Part shown: in pieces, positions 13,500-31,746 of the stretch
How the letters are laid out: every line of letters starts with the position of its first letter
How positions within the stretch are numbered: the first letter of the stretch is position 1
DNA from: an uncultured Actinomycetes bacterium
Lineage (GTDB): Bacteria > Actinomycetota > Thermoleophilia > Gaiellales > JAICJC01
Assembly (NCBI GenBank): GCA_963708365.1
Contig: CAVPSM010000011.1
Location: 141,744 to 205,743, forward strand
DNA: 64,000 nucleotides
Direction of reading: 5' to 3'
The notes under the pieces: generated by a model
The model's input: the letters and a program-made list of their open reading frames with translations, nothing else
What the model was told of the DNA's origin: nothing
Databases searched by the model: none
Position numbers and translations under genes: made by a program

Positions 13500-14807
13500 T
13501 CAGTCGAGCGGCCCGCGCAGATACAGGTGCGCGAGGCCGTTCACCGGCATGACGAGGTTCGTCGAGGGCGACACGAACGCGACCCAGCGCGCGCCCGGCG
13601 TCATCGCCACGCCGATGTCCCCCGCGTTGCCGACGCCGTGGTTGGCCTGGCCTCCCGCATGGGTCACGTCGACGCGGATGGTCCGGCCCGTCGCGCGGTC
13701 GCGCAGGAACAGATCGGCAGCGCGGTTGGTGTCGCCAGCGACGATGTTCGTCGCCCACGACTCGAACAGGCGGAAGCGCCCGCCCGCAGAGATCCCGAGC
13801 GCGAACGAGTCGCCGTTCGTCTGACCGTGCATGCCGACGTCGATACGCCGCGTCGTGCCCCTGCGGCGGTCGCGGACGAAGACGTCCGCATGCCGATTGG
13901 TATCGCCGGGGACCAGGTTCGTCGCCGCCGAGGTGAAGAAGACGTACCGCCCGCCGGGCGACATCGCCCCTCCGAGGCTGTTGCCGTTGCCGGCCACGCC
14001 GGAGCCGGTCTTGCTCACGAGCGTGGTCGTGTGCCGCGCGATGTTGCGCACGTAGACCTGGAACACGCCCGGGTGGGCCGGATCCGACGGGCCGGCGTCG
14101 AGCGAGAACGCGACCAGGTTGGCGTTGCTCGACATGCCGTCGAACTGGAGGTTCTTGAGGTCGCTGCCGAGGCCGCAGCAGCTGACGACGACGGCCGTGT
14201 TCGTGTGCAGGTCGATCCGCTCGAGCGGCGTGACGAGGCCCGCGGCGACGAGATAGCGGCCATGCTCGGAGAACGCCAGGATGCCCGGGTTCGGAATCCG
14301 TTTCACGACCCGCGTCGTGTTGTGCAGGCGGTCGCGGATGAAGAGGCAGTCCGGTGCCTGGCCGGGCGTGCAGCCGCTTCCGGGCACCAGGTTGGACGAG
14401 TCGGACTCGAACGCCACGAAGCGCCCGTCACCCGACATCGCGAGCGGGCCGAAGCTGTCGCCGTTCGCCTGGACGCCGCCGGGGCCGAGATCGACCCGCG
14501 CGGTCTTGCCAGTCCGCAGGTTGCGGACGAACACGTCGCGCATGCCGTTCGTGTCGCCCGGAACGAGGTTCGAGGCGGACGAGGCGAACGCGATCAGATT
14601 GCCGTTCTGGGCCAGCGCGATCCCGTCCTCGTCGACGGCGGTGTTGCCGAGCACGCCGGCGCTCGAGACGTCCACGCGCGTCGTGTGCGCGGGCGCCGCA
14701 GCGGCGGTCGCCACCATCGGTCCGATGGTGGAAAGGAGCACTGCGACCCATCCCGCTGCTCGTCCGACGCGCATCTGCCGCCTCCTCGCCGCGAACGAGG
14801 ATAGCAA
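13500..14807 (-). CDS. secreted TolB/PD40-like beta-propeller repeat protein
   Basis: It has a signal peptide. At least 6 repeats of the type S..NLVPGDTN...DVFVR(D/N) are present, for example SNLVPGDTNGMRDVFVRNL, ATNLVPGDTNRHADVFVRDR and ATNIVAGDTNRAADLFLRDR. Confidence 0.8.
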   Translation of the reverse strand: MLSSFAARRRQMRVGRAAGWVAVLLSTIGPMVATAAAAPAHTTRVDVSSAGVLGNTAVDEDGIALAQNGNLIAFASSASNLVPGDTNGMRDVFVRNLRTGKTARVDLGPGGVQANGDSFGPLAMSGDGRFVAFESDSSNLVPGSGCTPGQAPDCLFIRDRLHNTTRVVKRIPNPGILAFSEHGRYLVAAGLVTPLERIDLHTNTAVVVSCCGLGSDLKNLQFDGMSSNANLVAFSLDAGPSDPAHPGVFQVYVRNIARHTTTLVSKTGSGVAGNGNSLGGAMSPGGRYVFFTSAATNLVPGDTNRHADVFVRDRRRGTTRRIDVGMHGQTNGDSFALGISAGGRFRLFESWATNIVAGDTNRAADLFLRDRATGRTIRVDVTHAGGQANHGVGNAGDIGVAMTPGARWVAFVSPSTNLVMPVNGLAHLYLRGPLD

Positions 14808-21609: not shown

Positions 21610-23040
21610 ATGGACGTCGCACCGAACGACGCGCCGGAGGGCGCCGCCGCGCCCGCGGAGTGGTGGCTCGCGGTCGCCGCCGCGGCCGCCTGCGTGCTGC
21701 TCTACCTGGCAGCGACGGTGTCGGCGTACCTGCTCACCGAGATGGGCCATCGCACCGTCCCGGCGGCGGTCGTCGCGATCGCCGTGAACATCGCGCTGTG
21801 CGTCGGCACGATCGCGCTGGCCGCGCGGATCGCCTACCCCGGCGGCGGCGTGCCGGCCGCGATCGTCGGCCGGGCCCGGTCGAGCCGGGTGGGGATCGCC
21901 GTGCTCGCCCAGGTCGGCTTCGTCGTCGTCGCCCTGCCGCTCCTGACCGAGATCGGCAACGCCCTGGGCCTGCACGGCACGACGAATCTCCCGCTGCAAC
22001 ACCGCCACGCCGGCGCGGTCCTGCTCCTGACCTGGATCGCCGTCGTCGCCGCGCCGTGGATGGAGGAGCTCTCGATGCGCGGATTCCTACTCTCCGGCCT
22101 GTGGCAGCGCTTCGGATTCTGGCCGGCCGCCCTCGCATCGTCGCTCGTCTGGGCAGGCCTCCACGGCGTATCCGGCGTGCTCATCCCGTTCACCTGCGAG
22201 GGGCTCGTGCTGTGCTGGATCCGCCGCCGCACCGGGTCGGTGCGGACCGGCATCGCACTTCACGCCACCCAGAACACGGCCGCGTCCCTGTTCTCCAGCG
22301 CCGGCTTCCTGGTCGTGCCGCCGCTCGCCGCCGTCATCCTCAGCCTGGTCGTCACCCGCGAGGGCTCCGCCATCCAGGCCCGCCGCCGGGCCGCGGAGGC
22401 GCTCGGGCGCGCCAACCGCGCCGCCGACACGGTCGCCGCGCGGTTCGCGAGCAGCGACGCGCGGCCGGGGGTCTGGATGCTCGCGGGAGCGGCGTTCGCC
22501 GCCGGCCTCGTGATCGAGGCCCTGCCGATCGAGGTCGGTCTCGGCGGCTCGGCGCTCCTCACCGCCGGCAGAGTCGTGATCGTCGCCCTGACGCTGCCGC
22601 CGCTGGCGTGGCTGCTCCTGGGCGCGCCGAGGGCGTGGCGGGCGCCGGCGGCGACGTCCCTGGCCGGCGCCGCCGGGTGCGTGCTCGTCTGCCTGGCCCG
22701 CCTCGGCATCCTGCTCGACAGCTCGGCGCTCGTCCCGCTCGTCGGGATCGGCTACACGCTGGTCGGCTTCGGCCTGCTCGGGCTGGCGACCGGCGAGCTC
22801 GACCGGCGCGCCCGTCTCGCCGCCGGAGCGGCCGGGCTCCTCATGCTCGCGAACCTGACGCCGCTGCCGTATGTGATCACGACCTCGCAGGCCATGGTCG
22901 ACCAGGGTCTGCTCACGTCGCTCGGCGCCGCCGGCGCGCTCGTCACCGTCGGGCTCACGCTGCGCCGCCCTGCCACGCCCGCCTCTGCGCCGGCCGGCCC
23001 CGTCGAGCGCCGCCCGCAGGTCGAGCTCAGCCCGGGCTAG
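21610..23040 (+). CDS. CPBP-family (CAAX/Abi-type) intramembrane metalloprotease with an extra C-terminal multi-TM region
   Basis: The three CPBP motifs are WMEELSMRGF, VWAGLHG and ALHATQN. About 240 further hydrophobic residues follow. Confidence 0.8.
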   Translation: MDVAPNDAPEGAAAPAEWWLAVAAAAACVLLYLAATVSAYLLTEMGHRTVPAAVVAIAVNIALCVGTIALAARIAYPGGGVPAAIVGRARSSRVGIAVLAQVGFVVVALPLLTEIGNALGLHGTTNLPLQHRHAGAVLLLTWIAVVAAPWMEELSMRGFLLSGLWQRFGFWPAALASSLVWAGLHGVSGVLIPFTCEGLVLCWIRRRTGSVRTGIALHATQNTAASLFSSAGFLVVPPLAAVILSLVVTREGSAIQARRRAAEALGRANRAADTVAARFASSDARPGVWMLAGAAFAAGLVIEALPIEVGLGGSALLTAGRVVIVALTLPPLAWLLLGAPRAWRAPAATSLAGAAGCVLVCLARLGILLDSSALVPLVGIGYTLVGFGLLGLATGELDRRARLAAGAAGLLMLANLTPLPYVITTSQAMVDQGLLTSLGAAGALVTVGLTLRRPATPASAPAGPVERRPQVELSPG

Positions 23041-23397
23041 ATGGACGACCGGGAGGTCACCTCACGCTGGTCGATCTGCTCGGATCGCTCGCTGCTGTCG
23101 ATCGCGTCGACCGGGTCCGTGCTCTCGATCGGGTCGGTCGGGTCGGTGCTCTCGGTGGGATCGATCGGGAGCGCGTGCTCGGCGTGGTCCATCGGGTCGT
23201 TCGCCTCGTTCGGGTCGATGCTCTCGGCCCGGTCGCGCTGGTCGATCCTGTCCGATCGCTCGTACGGCGCCGTGCTCGGTTCGCGCGAGGCGCACACGCG
23301 CGCGGGCGGACTCAGCGCCGCACAGCTCGCGGCCGTGGCGCTTGCAATCGCGATCGCCGGGCGCCGGATCGAAGCCCGCCGCCGCGCCGCCCGCTGA
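23041..23397 (+). CDS. Ser-X-X triplet-repeat protein with a C-terminal TM helix and basic tail (strand and frame not certain)
   Basis: The ATG directly follows the CPBP TAG. Residues 8-76 have Ser at every third position, followed by LSAAQLAAVALAIAIAG-RRIEARRRAAR. GC3 is high, but one antisense frame is equally open. Confidence 0.45.
   Translation: MDDREVTSRWSICSDRSLLSIASTGSVLSIGSVGSVLSVGSIGSACSAWSIGSFASFGSMLSARSRWSILSDRSYGAVLGSREAHTRAGGLSAAQLAAVALAIAIAGRRIEARRRAAR
23062..23268. repeat. 9-nt-period TCG repeat tract with near-duplicate ends
   Basis: TCG (or TCC/TCA/AGC) recurs every 9 nt, 23 times. The ends tcacgctggtcgatctgctcggatcgctcg and tcgcgctggtcgatcctgtccgatcgctcg are near-identical. 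Confidence 0.8.
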
Positions 23398-23400
23398 CCG

Positions 23401-24996
23401 TCAGCCGGTCTGCAGGTCGCGCCGGACGAAGCGCTCGACGGCACCGGCCGCGGCGATCGCGGCCACGACCAGCATGGCGGCGGTGCCCCGGCGGTCGACC
23501 GCGACGAGCGGCGCCTGGGTCACGTGGTGGAACGGCGAGATCGTGAGCAGCCACCACGGCGCGCCCACCAGCGCCCCGACGAGCTCCCACAGGAAGGCGA
23601 CACCCACGAGGCCGAAGGCTGCGCCCGGGCTCGGCCGCGGCATCCAGGCGAAGAGGAGCGCGCCGAGCGCGAGGAAGAGCACCGAGACGGCGATGCAGTT
23701 CGCACCCGCCGTGAGCATCGCGCCGAGCCCGACACCGCCGCTCGTCACCGCCGATCCCGCCCAGGCCAGGACGCCCACGGCCAGGGAGAGCACAACCGTC
23801 GCCCCGGCCGCCACGAGCAGCCGGCCGCCGATCCACGACCGCCGCGCCACCGGCAGCGCGAACAGCGTCTCGAGGCGCCCGGACGACTCCTCGTCGCGGA
23901 GACCGCCGACGTGGCTCACCGCGTACAACGCCACGACCATCGCGAAGATCGCGAACACGGCGGCGAGATAGCCCGCCGCGCTCGTGATGTCGAGGCCGTA
24001 GGTGCGGATCGACACCTTGCGCATCTCGTCGGCCACGCTGTGGGCGAACGCGCCCAGCGCGAACGCGAACAGGCCCGCCCCGACGAGCCACGCGAGCAGC
24101 GACGGCAGCTCGGAACGGAGGGCGGCCTGCGCCGGCGAGCCGAGCAGCCCCGTCCGCGACCGGGCGGTGGCCCGCCGCGAGAGCACGCTCGCACCCAGGT
24201 CGCGGTTGCGCGCGATCGCTATTGCGACCGCTGCCAGCGCCGGCGCCGCGACCGCAAAGAGCAGCAGGACGGCGGGGCGTGCGCCGGTCACCGGCCGCAC
24301 CTGCTCGACCCAGCCGATCGGCGTGATCCAGCGCACCCAGCCGATGCCATGGCCGATGTCGGCGACGATGCGGAAGAACACCGCGGCGGCAAGCGCGACG
24401 CCCGCCCCCGCCTGGGCCGCGCGCCGCGTCGGCGCGAGCTGGGAGGCGACGGCGCCGGCCGCGGCGAACACCGCAGCCGGGCCGACGATCGCGGCCGCCA
24501 CCATGGCCGACTGAGCCGTCGTCATGTCGCCGGCCGCCACGGCGAACACGAGCAGGACGACCCAGAGCAGCGCGAAGAGGACGGCGCATTCGACCGCGAG
24601 GGCGACGAGGACGGCGACCACCGCGCCGCCGCGGCCGATCGTCCCCGCCAGGATCAGCTCGTAGCAGCCCGCATCCTCCTCGCCCCGCAGGGCGCGTATG
24701 GCGGCGAACAACCCCCACGCCGACACCAGGATGGCAAGCATCCCCATCGCCCGGAACTCGAAGAACCCGCCCACCGTCGCCAGGTCGTGGGGGACGCCGT
24801 AGAACAGGCGGAGGGCGATGTTGTCCGAGAACGCCCGGGCGAACTGCTCCCGGACGGCGCGGGTCGGGTAGGCCTGGGCGTAGCCGATCACGTTCGCGAG
24901 CGTGTAGAGCACCGCGATCAGCGCGATCACTGCCAACCGCACCCGCTCGCCGCGGAGCGCGTGGCGGACGACGGCGCTAGCGGGCAACCCCAACAT
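23401..24996 (-). CDS. ABC-2-type exporter permease (531 aa, multi-TM)
   Basis: ORF-track 531 aa, hydrophobic throughout. It overlaps the upstream ATPase gene by 20 nt. Confidence 0.85.
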   Translation of the reverse strand: MLGLPASAVVRHALRGERVRLAVIALIAVLYTLANVIGYAQAYPTRAVREQFARAFSDNIALRLFYGVPHDLATVGGFFEFRAMGMLAILVSAWGLFAAIRALRGEEDAGCYELILAGTIGRGGAVVAVLVALAVECAVLFALLWVVLLVFAVAAGDMTTAQSAMVAAAIVGPAAVFAAAGAVASQLAPTRRAAQAGAGVALAAAVFFRIVADIGHGIGWVRWITPIGWVEQVRPVTGARPAVLLLFAVAAPALAAVAIAIARNRDLGASVLSRRATARSRTGLLGSPAQAALRSELPSLLAWLVGAGLFAFALGAFAHSVADEMRKVSIRTYGLDITSAAGYLAAVFAIFAMVVALYAVSHVGGLRDEESSGRLETLFALPVARRSWIGGRLLVAAGATVVLSLAVGVLAWAGSAVTSGGVGLGAMLTAGANCIAVSVLFLALGALLFAWMPRPSPGAAFGLVGVAFLWELVGALVGAPWWLLTISPFHHVTQAPLVAVDRRGTAAMLVVAAIAAAGAVERFVRRDLQTG

Positions 24997-25906
24997 GCTC
25001 GCCGCCGTGGTCGTAGTGGGCCAGGAACAGCTCTTCGAGGCTCGGCTCGCGGCTGACCAGGGCGATGACCCCCGTGCCGGCCAGCCGGTCGATCAGCGGG
25101 CCGACCGGCCCGCGCACATCGAAGCGGACGGCGCTCTCGCCGACCGCCGTCGAGGTGACGCCGTCCGGGAGCTCGAGCTCGGGCGGGGTCCCGTCGTACG
25201 TTGCCTCGACGACCCGTGCCGACAAGTGGCGCAGGTCCGCGAGCGTCCCCTCCTCCACCAGCCTCCCCTCGCGCAGGATGCCGACGCGGTCGCACAGCGC
25301 CTCGACCTCGCTCAGGATGTGGGACGAGAGGAACACCGCCTGCCCGGCCGCCTTGGCCTCGGCGACAGTGTCGCGGAAGGCGGCCTCCATGAGCGGGTCG
25401 AGGCCGCTGGTCGGCTCGTCGAGGACGAGCAGGTCGGGCCGGGCCGCGAAGGCGGCGATCAGCTGGATCTTCTGGCGGTTGCCCTTCGAGTAGTCGCGCA
25501 CCCGCTTGCGCGGATCGAACTCGAACCGGTCGACGAGGATGCCGCGGTACGCCTCGTCGACGCCGCCGCGCAGGCGGGCGAGGAACTCGAGGCTCTCGAG
25601 GCCGGTGAGCGCCGGCCACAGCATCGGCTCGCCGGCGACGAACGCCACCCTCCGGTGCGCCTGCACCGGGTCGCGCCAGGCGTCGATGCCGAAGATCGCG
25701 GCGCTGCCCTCGCTGGCCCGCTGCAGCCCCAGGACGAGCCGGATCGTGGTGGTCTTCCCCGCCCCGTTCGGCCCCAGGTACCCGTACACCTCGCCCGCGG
25801 AGACGACGAGGTCGAGCCCGGCGAGCGCCACGGTCGCGCCGTAGCGCTTGCCGAGCCCGGACGTCCGGATGGCGACGTCGTCGCCGTGGCCAGGCGCGCG
25901 ACTCAT
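24977..25906 (-). CDS. ABC transporter ATP-binding protein
   Basis: Walker A is GPNGAGKTT, the signature is YSKGNRQK, and Walker B is LLVLDEPTSGLD. Confidence 0.9.
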   Translation of the reverse strand: MSRAPGHGDDVAIRTSGLGKRYGATVALAGLDLVVSAGEVYGYLGPNGAGKTTTIRLVLGLQRASEGSAAIFGIDAWRDPVQAHRRVAFVAGEPMLWPALTGLESLEFLARLRGGVDEAYRGILVDRFEFDPRKRVRDYSKGNRQKIQLIAAFAARPDLLVLDEPTSGLDPLMEAAFRDTVAEAKAAGQAVFLSSHILSEVEALCDRVGILREGRLVEEGTLADLRHLSARVVEATYDGTPPELELPDGVTSTAVGESAVRFDVRGPVGPLIDRLAGTGVIALVSREPSLEELFLAHYDHGGEHVGVAR

Positions 25907-26868
25907 CGCCTGGAGCGTACTCCGGGAACCGTTCCGCTCACCGACTCAGCGAACCCGGACCGCCAGCTGGGATGAGCCGGCTCCCAGCCGAGCTCGCGCC
26001 GCGCCTTCGCGTTCGAGGAGCCGCGCGACTGGGTCATCATCGCGACGCCGACCTCGCCTGCGGCGAGCCGCCCGATCCAGGCCGGGACGCGCCGGGGCGG
26101 CTTCGCGCGCAGCAGCGTCGCGAGATGCGGGAGCCACTCCGAGACGGGCGCCGGATCGTCGTCGACGATGTTGTAGACGCCCGCGTCGCCGTGGTCGAGC
26201 GCGGCCACCGTGGCCGCCGCGGCGTCGGCCACATGGACGAACGACCACACGGCCGCGCCGTCGCCGATCAGCGGGAACTTGCGCCGCCGGATCAGGGTCG
26301 CGTACTCCTCGGCCATCGACGTCCCGGGCCCGTAGAGCGCGCCGTACCGGAGCGCCAGCCCGGCGATCCCGCCGGCCTCGGTCACGGTCTCCTCGAGGTA
26401 GCGGATGGCCGCGATCGACTCGCGCATCGCCGTCGGCGGGTGCGGGTCGAGCGGATCGTCCTCGGTCTTCACCGGGCCGCCCTCGCGGGCATTCGGCCAG
26501 CCGGTATAGCTCTGCGCCAGGAACCGGGTCGCCCCGGCCGCCCGCGCTGCCTCGAGCAGGATGTCGAGGCCGCGGGTGCGCAGCACGTTCGTCTCCGCGA
26601 AGGAGCGGTCGAACCGGCGCAGGTCAGCCTGGCCGCGCAGCGCCGTCAGCTCATGGATCACCGCGTCGGGCTCGGCCCGCATCACGGCGGTCATCACCTC
26701 GGCACGGACGAGCGGATCCAGGACGGCGGGCGTCGCACCCGCGTCCGCCAGCCACCTCGCCTTCCCGCTCGATCGCGTGGTGCCGACCACCGTGTGGCCG
26801 GCCTCCACCAGCTGCGGGACGAGCTGCCTTCCGATCACACCGGTCGCTCCAGCTACGAACACACGCAT
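25903..26868 (-). CDS. NAD(P)-dependent epimerase/dehydratase (SDR)
   Basis: ORF 25903..27561 trimmed to MRVFVAGATGVIGRQL, with a GGAGG SD upstream. The stop overlaps the ATPase start (ATGA). Confidence 0.85.
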   Translation of the reverse strand: MRVFVAGATGVIGRQLVPQLVEAGHTVVGTTRSSGKARWLADAGATPAVLDPLVRAEVMTAVMRAEPDAVIHELTALRGQADLRRFDRSFAETNVLRTRGLDILLEAARAAGATRFLAQSYTGWPNAREGGPVKTEDDPLDPHPPTAMRESIAAIRYLEETVTEAGGIAGLALRYGALYGPGTSMAEEYATLIRRRKFPLIGDGAAVWSFVHVADAAAATVAALDHGDAGVYNIVDDDPAPVSEWLPHLATLLRAKPPRRVPAWIGRLAAGEVGVAMMTQSRGSSNAKARRELGWEPAHPSWRSGFAESVSGTVPGVRSRR

Positions 26869-26876
26869 CTCGGTTC

Positions 26877-26921
26877 CTCCGTCTCGTCGAAATGGGCTTG
26901 CACCCACATGACGAGACGGAG
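26877..26921 (-). promoter_or_regulatory. long stem-loop that includes the epimerase Shine-Dalgarno sequence
   Basis: The minus-strand RNA reads CUCCGUCUCGUC-[AUG UGGGU GCAA GCCCA UUUC]-GACGAGACGGAG followed by GAACCGAG AUG. That is a 12-bp stem, an inner 5-bp stem with a GCAA tetraloop, and the SD GGAGG partly inside the stem. Confidence 0.45.
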
Positions 26922-26957
26922 GGCCGGGTTGTGACACCCGGCGGTCAGTCGTTAGTG

Positions 26958-27938
26958 CTAGGCGACTTGTTCGCGGTCGAGCGCGAGCTCGTCGGCGCGG
27001 TAGAACCGCTCGGCGACCGGCCGTGTGGCGTCGATGACCGTGGCCGCCTCGTCCGGCGACAGCCGCCGTCGCCAGGCCCAGGCGTTCGCCTTGCTGTCCA
27101 TGGGTTGGAAGGCCGTCCGGCCGAGGCCGACGCGGCCCCACGGGTTGTTGCGGGCGGCGGGCCCGGCCATGCTGCCCTCGCGCACGGTCTTCTCCGCCCG
27201 GTCTGTCCACGGCAGGTCGAGCTGCTCGTAGAGCTCGCGGAAGCCGTTCTCCGGATCCATCGCCAGGTCCTCGTAGCGGACGAGGATGAACTCCGGATGG
27301 CGGTCGAGCTGCTGTGCGATCGCCGAGTGGATCAGGAGCCAGAGCAGGGCGCCGTGGCCGATGGGCTCGAGCGGCTCGTGGGCGGCGCGGACGATGTCGT
27401 CCATGTACTCCCGGAGGTAGCGGCCGATGAGCTCCGGCTGCGCTGCGATGTCGGGCAGGTTGTCCGCCCATCCGGGACCGATGCGCTTCAGGCTCGAGAC
27501 GATCCCGGCGGGGTGGCGGACGAGCATGACGACTCGGCAGTCGAGCCGGTCGGCCAGCCATTCGGCCGCGAAGACCTGGTACGGATCGTCGATCAGGGTG
27601 CGCATGCCGCGGGCGCGCCCGTACGTGAACGCGGTCAGGTACTTGGCGGCCTTCGCCAGGTCGTACACGCCATGGTTCGTGCGCAGCTCGGCGACAAGGT
27701 CGTAGCGCAGCTCGAGCATGTTACGGAACCCGTCCAGGTGCGCTGCCTCGTTGTGCTCCCCAACATGCTGGTAGGCAAGCGGCGGCGGGACGTGCAGGAT
27801 CCCGGGCGTGAGTCCCGGCGGGTGGCGGCGGTTGAACGGCTCGTTGACGTGCACGACGCCGCCGCCGCCCTCGATCATCTTCGCGACCCAGCTACCGCCC
27901 GAGCGGTGCATGCCCGTGAGCAGGATCGGTGTCTTCAT
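26958..27938 (-). CDS. sulfotransferase-family protein
   Basis: ORF 26958..27959 trimmed to Met8. It has a PAPS-binding 5-prime PSB-like motif (LLTGMHRSGGSW) and a ...VMLVRHPAGIVSS region. Confidence 0.75.
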   Translation of the reverse strand: MKTPILLTGMHRSGGSWVAKMIEGGGGVVHVNEPFNRRHPPGLTPGILHVPPPLAYQHVGEHNEAAHLDGFRNMLELRYDLVAELRTNHGVYDLAKAAKYLTAFTYGRARGMRTLIDDPYQVFAAEWLADRLDCRVVMLVRHPAGIVSSLKRIGPGWADNLPDIAAQPELIGRYLREYMDDIVRAAHEPLEPIGHGALLWLLIHSAIAQQLDRHPEFILVRYEDLAMDPENGFRELYEQLDLPWTDRAEKTVREGSMAGPAARNNPWGRVGLGRTAFQPMDSKANAWAWRRRLSPDEAATVIDATRPVAERFYRADELALDREQVA

Positions 27939-28146
27939 GCGCGTGCGTCCGCACGGCAAAGCTGAACGTGCCTCATCTCGCCTCCATCAGCCCGGACCAC
28001 GTAGGTGGTGAAGGTCCCGGGAAATCAAATTGAACACGCGCCGGTGCCATGGGTCAACCCCCACCGTGGTGAGCGCGCTTTTGGTTCGCGGACACCTGCG
28101 GTAATGTGTCGGCGTAGGCGGGCAGGGGCAACGGGCTGGAGGCACG

Positions 28147-28608
28147 ATGGGTGTGAGTCCCACACGGTTTGCGATCGCCATCTCGGGCGGGTTGGCGTGT
28201 CTGATGCTGGGCCTGCTGGCCGGAGTGAGCGCCGGCAGCAGCGCGACGAACCACGTGATGTCGGTGGAGACGGTGACCACGACGACGCGCGCGCAGCTGC
28301 AGGCTGCGGTCGACCGGACGATCACGGTCGACGGCAAGGTGCGCACGGAGACGCTCGCGGCACAGCAGCGCCAGGCAAACGCGGCGGTACGCACGGTGAC
28401 GCAGACGGTCACGAGGACTGTCACCGACCCCGTGACGGTCACGGAGACACAGGCGGCCGCAGGCCCGCCGCCGCCCGGTCCAGGGCACAAGCACAAGAAG
28501 GACAAGCACAAGGGCGGGCACGGGCCCGGTGGCCCCGGCGACGGTGGTGGCCCCGGCGACGGTGGCGGCCCCGGCGGCGGCGGTGACGGCGGGGGTGACG
28601 GCGGCTGA
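28147..28608 (+). CDS. membrane-anchored Thr/Val-rich protein with a Gly/Pro/Asp-rich tail, possibly 3-prime truncated by a frameshift
   Basis: A GGAGG SD is present. The TM segment is FAIAISGGLACLMLGLLAGV. Then come VETVTTTTRAQ...VRTVTQTVTRTVTDPVTVTETQ and GPGDGGGPGDGGGPGGGGDGGGDGG. Confidence 0.6.
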   Translation: MGVSPTRFAIAISGGLACLMLGLLAGVSAGSSATNHVMSVETVTTTTRAQLQAAVDRTITVDGKVRTETLAAQQRQANAAVRTVTQTVTRTVTDPVTVTETQAAAGPPPPGPGHKHKKDKHKGGHGPGGPGDGGGPGDGGGPGGGGDGGGDGG

Positions 28609-31002: not shown

Positions 31003-31746
31003 GTGGGAGTCTTCGCAAAGGTCTTGCTGGCCATCGCCATCCTGGTGGCGAACGGCGTATTGCTCTTCGTCATCCTGCGGTTCCTGCTCTGGCTGGCGTT
31101 CCCGGGCAGGCGAGACGAGGAAGCCGCAGCCGCCGCAGCCATCCCGGCTGCGGGAGCGGCGGCCGCCGGAGCGCTTGCAGCTTCCGCCGAGAGCGGCAAG
31201 GCAGGGTCCGTCGCCGCGGCGGTGGCGACTGTGCCTGCGCTACCCGAGCCGTCCGCATCGCCGCCCACGCCCGGCATGCCCGTGCTCGCGATGGCCTCCG
31301 CCGGTCGGCCGCGTGCGTATCCGCACCGGCTCCTGATCGGGCTGCCCGTAATCCTTGCGCTCTTCGCCGGAGGCGTCTGGCTTGGGAGCGTCGTCGGGGG
31401 ATCCGGCTCCGCAGCCGCCGCCACGCACACGATTCACGTGACCGGGAGGGTGATTACCGTCAACCACAGGACGGAGGTCCGCGTCCCGGCGCAGACGGTG
31501 TTGATCAAGAAGGGCAGCGTCATCTCCGTTCCCGCGGCAACCGTGAGGCTCCCAGCGCACGTGGTGACGCACACCGTCAAGCGCACGATCACGACCGTCC
31601 TCCCGGGGACGACGAGCACCGTCGAGACCACCGTGGTGATCCCGACCACGGTGTTCGATACGGGCACGACGACCACGGTCACCGAGACCACGACCGAGAC
31701 GGTCACGTCCGGCACGACGACGACGTCGACCTCCGCGACCACGTAG
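31003..31746 (+). CDS. membrane-anchored Thr/Val-rich protein (paralogous in style to 28147)
   Basis: The N-terminal TM is VLLAIAILVANGVLLFVILRFLLWLAF. Later segments read HVTGRVITVNHRTEVRV...VVTHTVKRTITTV...TTTTVTETTTETVTSGTTTTSTSATT. Confidence 0.65.
   Translation: MGVFAKVLLAIAILVANGVLLFVILRFLLWLAFPGRRDEEAAAAAAIPAAGAAAAGALAASAESGKAGSVAAAVATVPALPEPSASPPTPGMPVLAMASAGRPRAYPHRLLIGLPVILALFAGGVWLGSVVGGSGSAAAATHTIHVTGRVITVNHRTEVRVPAQTVLIKKGSVISVPAATVRLPAHVVTHTVKRTITTVLPGTTSTVETTVVIPTTVFDTGTTTTVTETTTETVTSGTTTTSTSATT

Follow-up and report, generated by a model that had tools for sequence, protein, structure and literature searches.

How a protein could carry a serine at every third residue, and whether such a periodic stretch encodes a protein at all, are the questions raised by a small open reading frame (ORF) at positions 23041-23397 (plus strand) of the window, the whole 64-kb stretch of actinobacterial DNA that was analysed. 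According to the ORF list and its translation, the ORF has 118 codons from ATG to TGA, and serine occupies every third residue 23 times without a break over residues 8-74 of the 118-residue protein. The phased serines are encoded by TCG (18), TCC (3), TCA (1) and AGC (1). The two ends of this S-x-x array, SRWSICSDRS (residues 8-17) and SRWSILSDRS (residues 65-74), are identical at nine of ten positions, and the array is followed by the segment LSAAQLAAVALAIAIAG (residues 91-107) and the tail RRIEARRRAAR (residues 108-118). The unbroken triplets, the predominance of TCG, the near-duplicate ends, the hydrophobic helix and the basic tail had all been described in the original prediction, made from the letters of the window, and were borne out by translation. 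As serine makes up 5.4% of residues in the 13 other genes of the window, the chance of finding it at all 23 fixed positions is p ∼7e-30. At the DNA level, Tandem Repeats Finder detects a 27-nt unit in 2.9 copies with 82% matches (23093-23169). No second copy of the gene is found within the 64-kb window.

The repeat keeps both strands open. An acidic ORF rich in DP and TE runs over 23444-23037 on the minus strand and has its third codon positions in common with the plus-strand ORF. It could be argued that this ORF is the real gene, or that the locus is only a DNA repeat of which no frame is translated, and minus-frame ORFs are open in some low-GC homologues too. The GC content by codon position of the S-x-x ORF (0.60/0.66/0.91) fits a coding frame of a 72% GC genome (window G+C, 71.7%), but composition alone cannot decide the strand because the minus frame has the same pattern. 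What separates the two frames is the comparison with homologous loci. The phased serines are TCG or TCC in actinobacterial loci and AGT or AGC in Chloroflexota (12 of 14 in locus L009 and 16 of 21 in L010), and this switch from TCN to AGY converts the periodic Asp/Glu of the minus frame to Leu in both Chloroflexota copies. That serine is kept across two unconnected codon families fits selection on serine. The minus frame is interrupted by stops in L001, L003 and L004. Elsewhere it stays open because a stop in it requires a Tyr, His or Gln codon in the plus frame, and the protein has none of these; its openness is thus a by-product of plus-frame composition.

The alignments point in the same direction. 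Identity is higher in the plus frame than in the minus frame in all comparisons, and the plus-frame alignment score is higher in 9 of 10 comparisons and tied for L008. Among 45 pairs of closer relatives, the ratio of nonsynonymous to synonymous substitution rates (dN/dS) was 0.02-0.44 when read in the plus frame, against 0.35-1.40 in the minus frame, and the minus-frame value was always the higher. No Rfam RNA family matches the S-x-x region, and conservation at the protein level holds over genomes of 51-76% G+C. Together, these comparisons of sequences show that 23041-23397 is a genuine protein-coding gene under purifying selection and that the plus frame is its coding frame; we regard the minus-strand gene, or a repeat translated in no frame, as extremely improbable. 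The original prediction had called a small plus-strand ORF while keeping the minus frame as a possible gene, and had proposed a synonymous versus nonsynonymous comparison by frame; this comparison, together with the codon switch and the stops in three homologues, speaks for the former and against the latter. There is a practical point here: for a repeat that is open on both strands, the six-fold degeneracy of serine codons can tell which strand and frame is coding.

Each lineage uses its serine codons uniformly. TCG accounts for 78% of serine codons in the window ORF versus 44% in the remaining window genes (p = 8e-4), and the Chloroflexota copies (L009, 6085-6285; L010, 6004-6216) mostly have AGT/AGC where the window has TCG (23062-23268). 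This homogeneity hints at concerted evolution, by unit duplication or gene conversion among the 27-nt units.

The protein has many relatives. An exhaustive HMMER search of 1.84 billion representative proteins yielded 612 clusters at E≤1e-3, of which 144 reach E≤1e-10; the strongest match has an E of 5.5e-42. When species-representative genomes were scanned, 10 loci were recovered, which are found in metagenome-assembled genomes (MAGs) of Actinomycetes and Acidimicrobiaceae, in Longivirga aurantiaca, Kitasatospora sp. and Hoyosella rhizosphaerae, in a Rubrivirga MAG (Rhodothermota) and in two MAGs of Chloroflexota, one of Anaerolinea and one of Aggregatilineales. Metagenomes, scanned with a core alignment of eight sequences as the query, gave at least 544 confirmed relatives, from which 80 loci were kept. 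The serine phase is kept in all 90 fetched loci (10 genome and 80 metagenome; 91 with the window), which was the test that the original prediction had set for itself. The family thus ranges over Actinomycetota, Chloroflexota and one Rhodothermota MAG. In the one cluster that was looked up, every named member, including MFD0573373.1 of Kitasatospora gansuensis, is a 'hypothetical protein'. A tblastn search of plasmids and phages, in which the low-complexity filter may hide matches, found none, and a scan of IMG/VR returned two spurious simple repeats and nothing else, so that the family is not phage-borne. One apparent relative, P0021, was rejected as false and excluded from the alignments: it is a protein of 1053 residues with 15 tandem units of ∼70 residues that scored E 1.7e-16 through short LSxxS stretches.

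Family members are ∼80-130 residues long and follow the consensus M-x(1-10)-SRWSLWSxDSxLSI(A/G)SxGSVLSIGSVGSxLSxGSIGSAxSxxSxGSxxSxGSxLSxxSRWSxxSxRS. The array has mostly 20-27 triplets, the mode being 23 (61 of 239 sequences), and is bracketed by conserved S-[RK]-W-S motifs. Among 150 representatives, the serine columns are 90-99% conserved, and several other columns are near-invariant, namely L19 (97%), I21 (87%), G25 (88%), L28 (96%), G31 (92%), G34 (96%), G40 (93%), G43 (98%) and G52 (92%). The pattern is one of three nonapeptides, (S-φ-L)(S-I-G)(S-φ-G), followed by S-x-L and S-I-G elements spaced by 12, 12 and 9 residues. This higher-order unit of nine residues, with its invariant Gly and Leu positions, was absent from the original prediction. 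As judged from the triplet counts and the column profiles, the array is fixed in length and position-specific rather than free low complexity, and the conservation shows that selection targets the serines themselves together with specific Leu, Ile and Gly positions. In almost all loci the initiator Met lies 1-10 residues ahead of the first SRWS, which leaves no signal peptide.

The family comes in two forms. The short form ends 10-25 residues past the array. The long form, to which the window copy belongs, makes up 62 of 149 representatives (∼42%) and adds a linker of ∼13 residues, a hydrophobic helix 11-16 residues past the array and an Arg-rich tail; 62 of 70 long-form members have two or more Arg or Lys residues after this hydrophobic segment. 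In L065 (1452-1520), a close relative of the window, a natural deletion has removed exactly the C-terminal helix and the Arg tail, and the representative P0006 ends short in the same way. The tail is therefore accessory, because L065 has lost it by deletion.

No library gave the family a name. Scans of the window protein and 60 members against Pfam, NCBIfam and PADLOC found nothing above any cut-off, and the Pfam repeat models (collagen-like, hexapeptide left-handed β-helix, RTX) had no match to the window protein at E≤1; a match of one of the 60 members to Pfam Collagen (E 0.17) is noise. A profile search of PDB sequences matched synthetic linkers of the (GST)n/GS type only, and literature searches with the motif and with the phrase 'Ser-X-X repeat' found no relevant paper. 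As far as these searches reach, the family is without description in any library or paper, in agreement with the original prediction that no characterised family is like it.

Two kinds of known repeat resemble the array. The RTX β-roll (GGxGxDxUx) consists of tandem nonapeptides in a fixed number of units, each with a Gly-rich turn and a short hydrophobic strand, and the S-x-x array is alike in these respects. Unlike RTX, the array has no Asp and no calcium-binding consensus, its hydrophobic positions are of opposite parity, and the protein is given neither a Pfam match nor a β-roll by AlphaFold2. The collagen-like Gly-X-Y repeat and the Gly-x-x polyproline-II bundle of the snow-flea antifreeze protein also place a small residue at a strict three-residue period. 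The S-x-x array, however, repeats Ser instead of Gly, fills its x positions with bulky aliphatic residues and has no Pro. The original prediction had likened the strict three-residue period to collagen-like, polyproline-II and flat ice-binding or solenoid folds; the AlphaFold2 models described below lend structural support to none of these.

The comparisons thus show a real gene of a large, uncharacterised family of small proteins defined by a fixed S-x-x array, and we find the explanation as a whole, this gene together with the module proposed next, fairly probable. What the array is can be put forward more tentatively. It is possible that it forms a self-contained, folded or self-assembling, β-rich repeat module, tethered to the membrane in the long form, rather than acting as an enzyme, as a linker or as the precursor of a peptide. 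In such a module, short strands (φ-L-S-I) would alternate with Gly turns (G-S-x-G), the serines would stack into ladders, and the SRWS motifs would cap both ends. The C-terminal helix of the long form would tether the module to the cytoplasmic membrane. In the lineage of the window, in which the S-x-x gene directly follows a CPBP intramembrane protease gene, the module could act at the membrane with the CPBP protein, possibly as its substrate or partner; the tight operon link suggests such a membrane role in this lineage.

Several observations weigh against the β-rich module. Two AlphaFold2 runs were made, one for the whole protein from an alignment of 60 sequences and one for residues 1-84 from an alignment of 150. 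In both runs the array reached a predicted local distance difference test score (pLDDT) of 44-64, with a weak helix at residues 45-68/79 and no strands, and neither run assigns it a fold; β-solenoids are usually recognised by AlphaFold2. A β-strand alone does not account for a serine period of exactly three residues. The short form lacks both an anchor and a signal peptide, while the long form, to judge from its Arg tail, would be oriented N-out; this would put the two forms on opposite sides of the membrane. The C-terminal helix, at residues 93-117, is the only part modelled with confidence (pLDDT 89-96). It is Ala-rich and borderline on the biological insertion scale at +2.5; from the model, it is probably a membrane anchor. 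Lastly, the organism of the window is seen in soil DNA metagenomes only, and no RNA-seq run contains the window.

The weak helix raises the question of whether the array itself is embedded in the membrane. The median longest uncharged stretch, rich in Ser, Gly and aliphatic residues, is ∼41 residues with conserved R/W motifs on both sides, and could be folded as a hairpin of two short transmembrane helices that places both SRWS motifs at the same interface, with the small residues driving packing or oligomerisation; such a small membrane protein could be a pore or a regulator. The lack of a signal peptide and the presence of integral membrane proteins as operon partners in the CPBP-linked lineage would agree with it, as would the low-confidence AlphaFold2 helix. 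The physical properties of the array do not favour a pair of transmembrane helices: Kyte-Doolittle averages are 1.0-1.5 per 19-mer, below 1.6, and the best 19-mer has a summed insertion energy of +4.1 kcal/mol (family median, +3.8). Moreover, about one third Ser and one fifth Gly is atypical of a transmembrane helix, and in many members position 24, inside the hydrophobic run, is charged (K, R or E). An α-helix with a three-residue period would spread the serines all round, explaining neither the strict phase nor the nine-residue unit. We therefore consider the hairpin quite unlikely.

The strict three-residue phase is not fully explained by the β-rich module or by any of its alternatives. We would judge it unlikely, though deserving of mention, that the array represents a new structural principle, or else a scaffold that is modified at each third residue by an enzyme encoded elsewhere. 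A new principle could mean three residues per structural step, with serine ladders in a β-solenoid that has a polar, Ser-lined interior or face, or alternatively a polyproline-II or 3-10-like bundle; either could assemble at or in the membrane as a pore, a fibre or a ligand-binding surface. The modification scaffold, if true, would be a new class of modified proteins. Hundreds of clusters, in at least two major soil phyla, keep serine at each third position for ∼70 residues despite different serine codon families, and no library, solved structure or paper accounts for the array, which AlphaFold2 cannot model. We argue that the S-x-x family would be either an unrecognised fold or assembly, or an unrecognised substrate of modification. 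The question is cheap to test, as the proteins are small, carriers such as Kitasatospora gansuensis, Hoyosella rhizosphaerae CGMCC 1.15478 and Longivirga aurantiaca are in culture, and the short form of ∼80 residues could be expressed directly.

A related proposal places the modifying machinery next to the gene. CPBP proteins include CaaX proteases and bacteriocin-processing enzymes, and in the window a CPBP gene, a small hydrophobic ORF and an ABC-2 permease with its ATPase adjoin one another. The S-x-x protein could then be the precursor of a ribosomal or bacteriocin-like peptide, or a scaffold on which serines are modified processively, with the CPBP protein acting in maturation and the ABC-2 transporter in export or resistance; strict periodicity would suit a processive enzyme. 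No partner is conserved, however, and CPBP genes are near the S-x-x gene in only 5 of 91 loci. Genes of the radical SAM, Lan, YcaO or similar types were not seen near the examined loci, nor was any found within 10 kb in the window. There is no division into leader and core, conservation being uniform from residue 8 to the end of the array, and the ABC genes of the window are part of a convergent operon with an epimerase and a sulfotransferase. A further pointer to this proposal is a similarity to HxsA4, a His-x-Ser repeat protein matured by radical SAM enzymes (PMC13128918), whose model NF038313 has sub-threshold matches in 59 of 60 members (best E 5e-5) and is the sole recurrent signal from a curated model; the window protein scores 17.1 bits against a cut-off of 55, which reflects periodic serine only. 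We give a peptide precursor or adjacent modification pathway little credence.

The likeness to HxsA ends with the period. HxsA, the effector of the newly described HXS anti-phage system, combines a signal peptide and a peptidoglycan-binding domain with five basic H-x-S repeats; it is matured by the radical SAM proteins HxsB and HxsC plus HxsD, which are always co-encoded, and 99.7% of HxsA is found in Pseudomonadota (PMC13128918). Both are small bacterial proteins with serine at a three-residue period. In contrast, the S-x-x family has ∼23 repeats of Ser-φ-(G/L), lacks His in the array and has neither a signal peptide nor a further domain; its hosts are Actinomycetota and Chloroflexota, and no radical SAM gene lies within 10 kb of the window gene or among the examined neighbours elsewhere. 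With none of the defining features of HxsA found, membership in that family was rejected.

The CPBP neighbour suggests another role for the C-terminus. The helix and Arg tail could be a sorting signal cut by the adjacent CPBP protein, in the manner of myxosortase, the CPBP protease whose C-terminal target signal is tripartite (PMC11980579), so that the repeat domain is released or re-anchored at the surface. As in the MYXO-CTERM/myxosortase (MrtX) system, a CPBP gene adjoins one for a protein that ends in a transmembrane-like helix and an Arg-rich tail. The CPBP protein of the window also has weak matches to the MrtS, MrtJ and myxosortase-core models, and some of the long forms have a GPP(A) motif ahead of the helix. 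The matches are sub-threshold, at 22-26 bits against cut-offs of 75-130, and TIGR03901 matched one member at E 0.038. Unlike MYXO-CTERM proteins, the family has no signal peptide and neither an invariant Cys nor another universal signature ahead of the helix; its tail is absent from most members and dispensable in the CPBP-linked lineage, where L065 has no helix. Conversely, the long forms L002 and L039 have no CPBP neighbour. The tags sorted by CPBP proteins (MYXO-CTERM, Synerg-CTERM, JDVT-CTERM) also differ in that a CPBP gene accompanies the S-x-x gene so rarely, and each locus has one candidate substrate rather than a set of tagged proteins. On balance, we hold a sorting signal to be very unlikely.

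The features of the locus are collected in Table 1.

Table 1. Features of the S-x-x gene and its neighbours, in window coordinates
Feature	Position	Strand	Evidence
S-x-x repeat protein gene, long form (118 aa + TGA stop)	23041..23397	+	ORF, translation, 612 clusters of relatives, plus-frame dN/dS
Core array, 23 unbroken Ser-x-x triplets (residues 8-76)	23062..23268	+	Ser columns 90-99% conserved (150 sequences)
N-terminal flank SRWSICSDRS (family consensus S-[RK]-W-S-L-W-S-E-D-S)	23062..23091	+	translation, alignment
Clearest 27-nt (nonapeptide) tandem units, S-φ-L-S-I-G-S-φ-G	23093..23169	+	Tandem Repeats Finder, column profile
C-terminal flank SRWSILSDRS (family consensus S-R-W-S-V-L-S-x-R-S)	23233..23262	+	translation, alignment
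Hydrophobic C-terminal helix LSAAQLAAVALAIAIAG (residues 91-107), probably a membrane anchor	23311..23361	+	AlphaFold2, Kyte-Doolittle maximum 1.88
Arg-rich tail RRIEARRRAAR	23362..23394	+	translation
TAGATG junction, CPBP stop abutting S-x-x start codon, same frame	23038..23043	+	sequence
Rce1-like CPBP intramembrane protease gene, 476 aa	21610..23040	+	PF02517, 60.6 bits vs gathering 22.4, E 1.8e-16, residues 137-223
Convergent ABC-2 permease gene, stop 3 nt from S-x-x stop	23401..24996	-	PF12679 at E 8.8e-11
ABC ATPase gene, DrrA-like	24977..25906	-	PF00005 E 4e-20; TIGR01188 E 2.5e-55

The coupling of the start codon to the CPBP gene, as described in the original prediction, is real but limited to one lineage. 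The CPBP stop TAG (23038-23040) abuts the S-x-x ATG (23041-23043) in the window, and in L001, L014, L015 and L065 the spacing lies between an overlap of 1 nt (TGATG) and a gap of 14 nt. These four and the window are the five loci with a CPBP gene within 5-6 kb; elsewhere the neighbours are unrelated, so that the coupling does not extend to the family. The ABC-2 permease and ATPase genes are also syntenic in the CPBP-linked lineage (listed for the permease in L001, L015 and L065). The C-terminal half of the CPBP protein (∼residues 230-476; window 22300-23037, plus strand) is hydrophobic and has no Pfam or NCBIfam match, and this extension is kept in L001, L015 and L065. A minus-strand run converges on the S-x-x gene (23395-27959) and comprises genes for a sulfotransferase (26961-27959), an NAD epimerase (25906-26952), the ABC ATPase and the ABC-2 permease; the run has the look of a separate export operon and not of a partner to the S-x-x gene.

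In other lineages the neighbours include an HDAC-like deacetylase, an oligopeptide (Opp) ABC ATPase, a prolyl oligopeptidase, a PLP decarboxylase, TGT, Vut_1, NUDIX, methyltransferases, RecR/DnaX and peptidyl-tRNA hydrolase, and among the examined loci no neighbour family spans lineages. The placement of the S-x-x gene has one weak regularity: in 41 of 53 loci it closes a co-directional unit, frequently no more than 30 nt behind the preceding gene, and in 42 of 55 a convergent gene comes next, although the loci behind both counts are not phylogenetically independent. In L024 (1280-1290) and related loci, and in L004, L008 and L009, a gap of 4-20 nt separates the S-x-x gene from an unrelated co-directional gene upstream (HDAC-like, methyltransferase, Vut_1 or NUDIX). 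In different lineages, then, it is repeatedly the terminal cistron of some operon.

A promoter and terminator scan gave no match. The CPBP and S-x-x genes are in the same frame with a single TAG between them, and GGGAGG occurs inside the S-x-x ORF at 23051-23056. In the aligned region of L065, a purine-rich stretch lies ahead of a GTG start where the window has GTC. From this alignment, the start site seems to have shifted within the CPBP-linked lineage. A conserved, partly palindromic motif, GTGTGCGA(G/C)AACAC, is found ∼5-20 nt upstream of the start in one sub-lineage (L002, L012, L013, L016, L018, L023, L034, L039, L049 and L057), in a divergent intergenic region of ∼65 nt. The motif may be an operator or a promoter element.

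Elsewhere in the window, the ORFs at 13503-14807 (minus), 28147-28605 (plus) and 31003-31743 (plus) are well-formed, have coding-like GC at third codon positions, and gave no Pfam match at E≤1e-3. At positions 4600-10500 of L001, the homologues of the CPBP, ABC-2 and ATPase genes are broken over several frames; these split genes are probably assembly frameshifts rather than pseudogenes.

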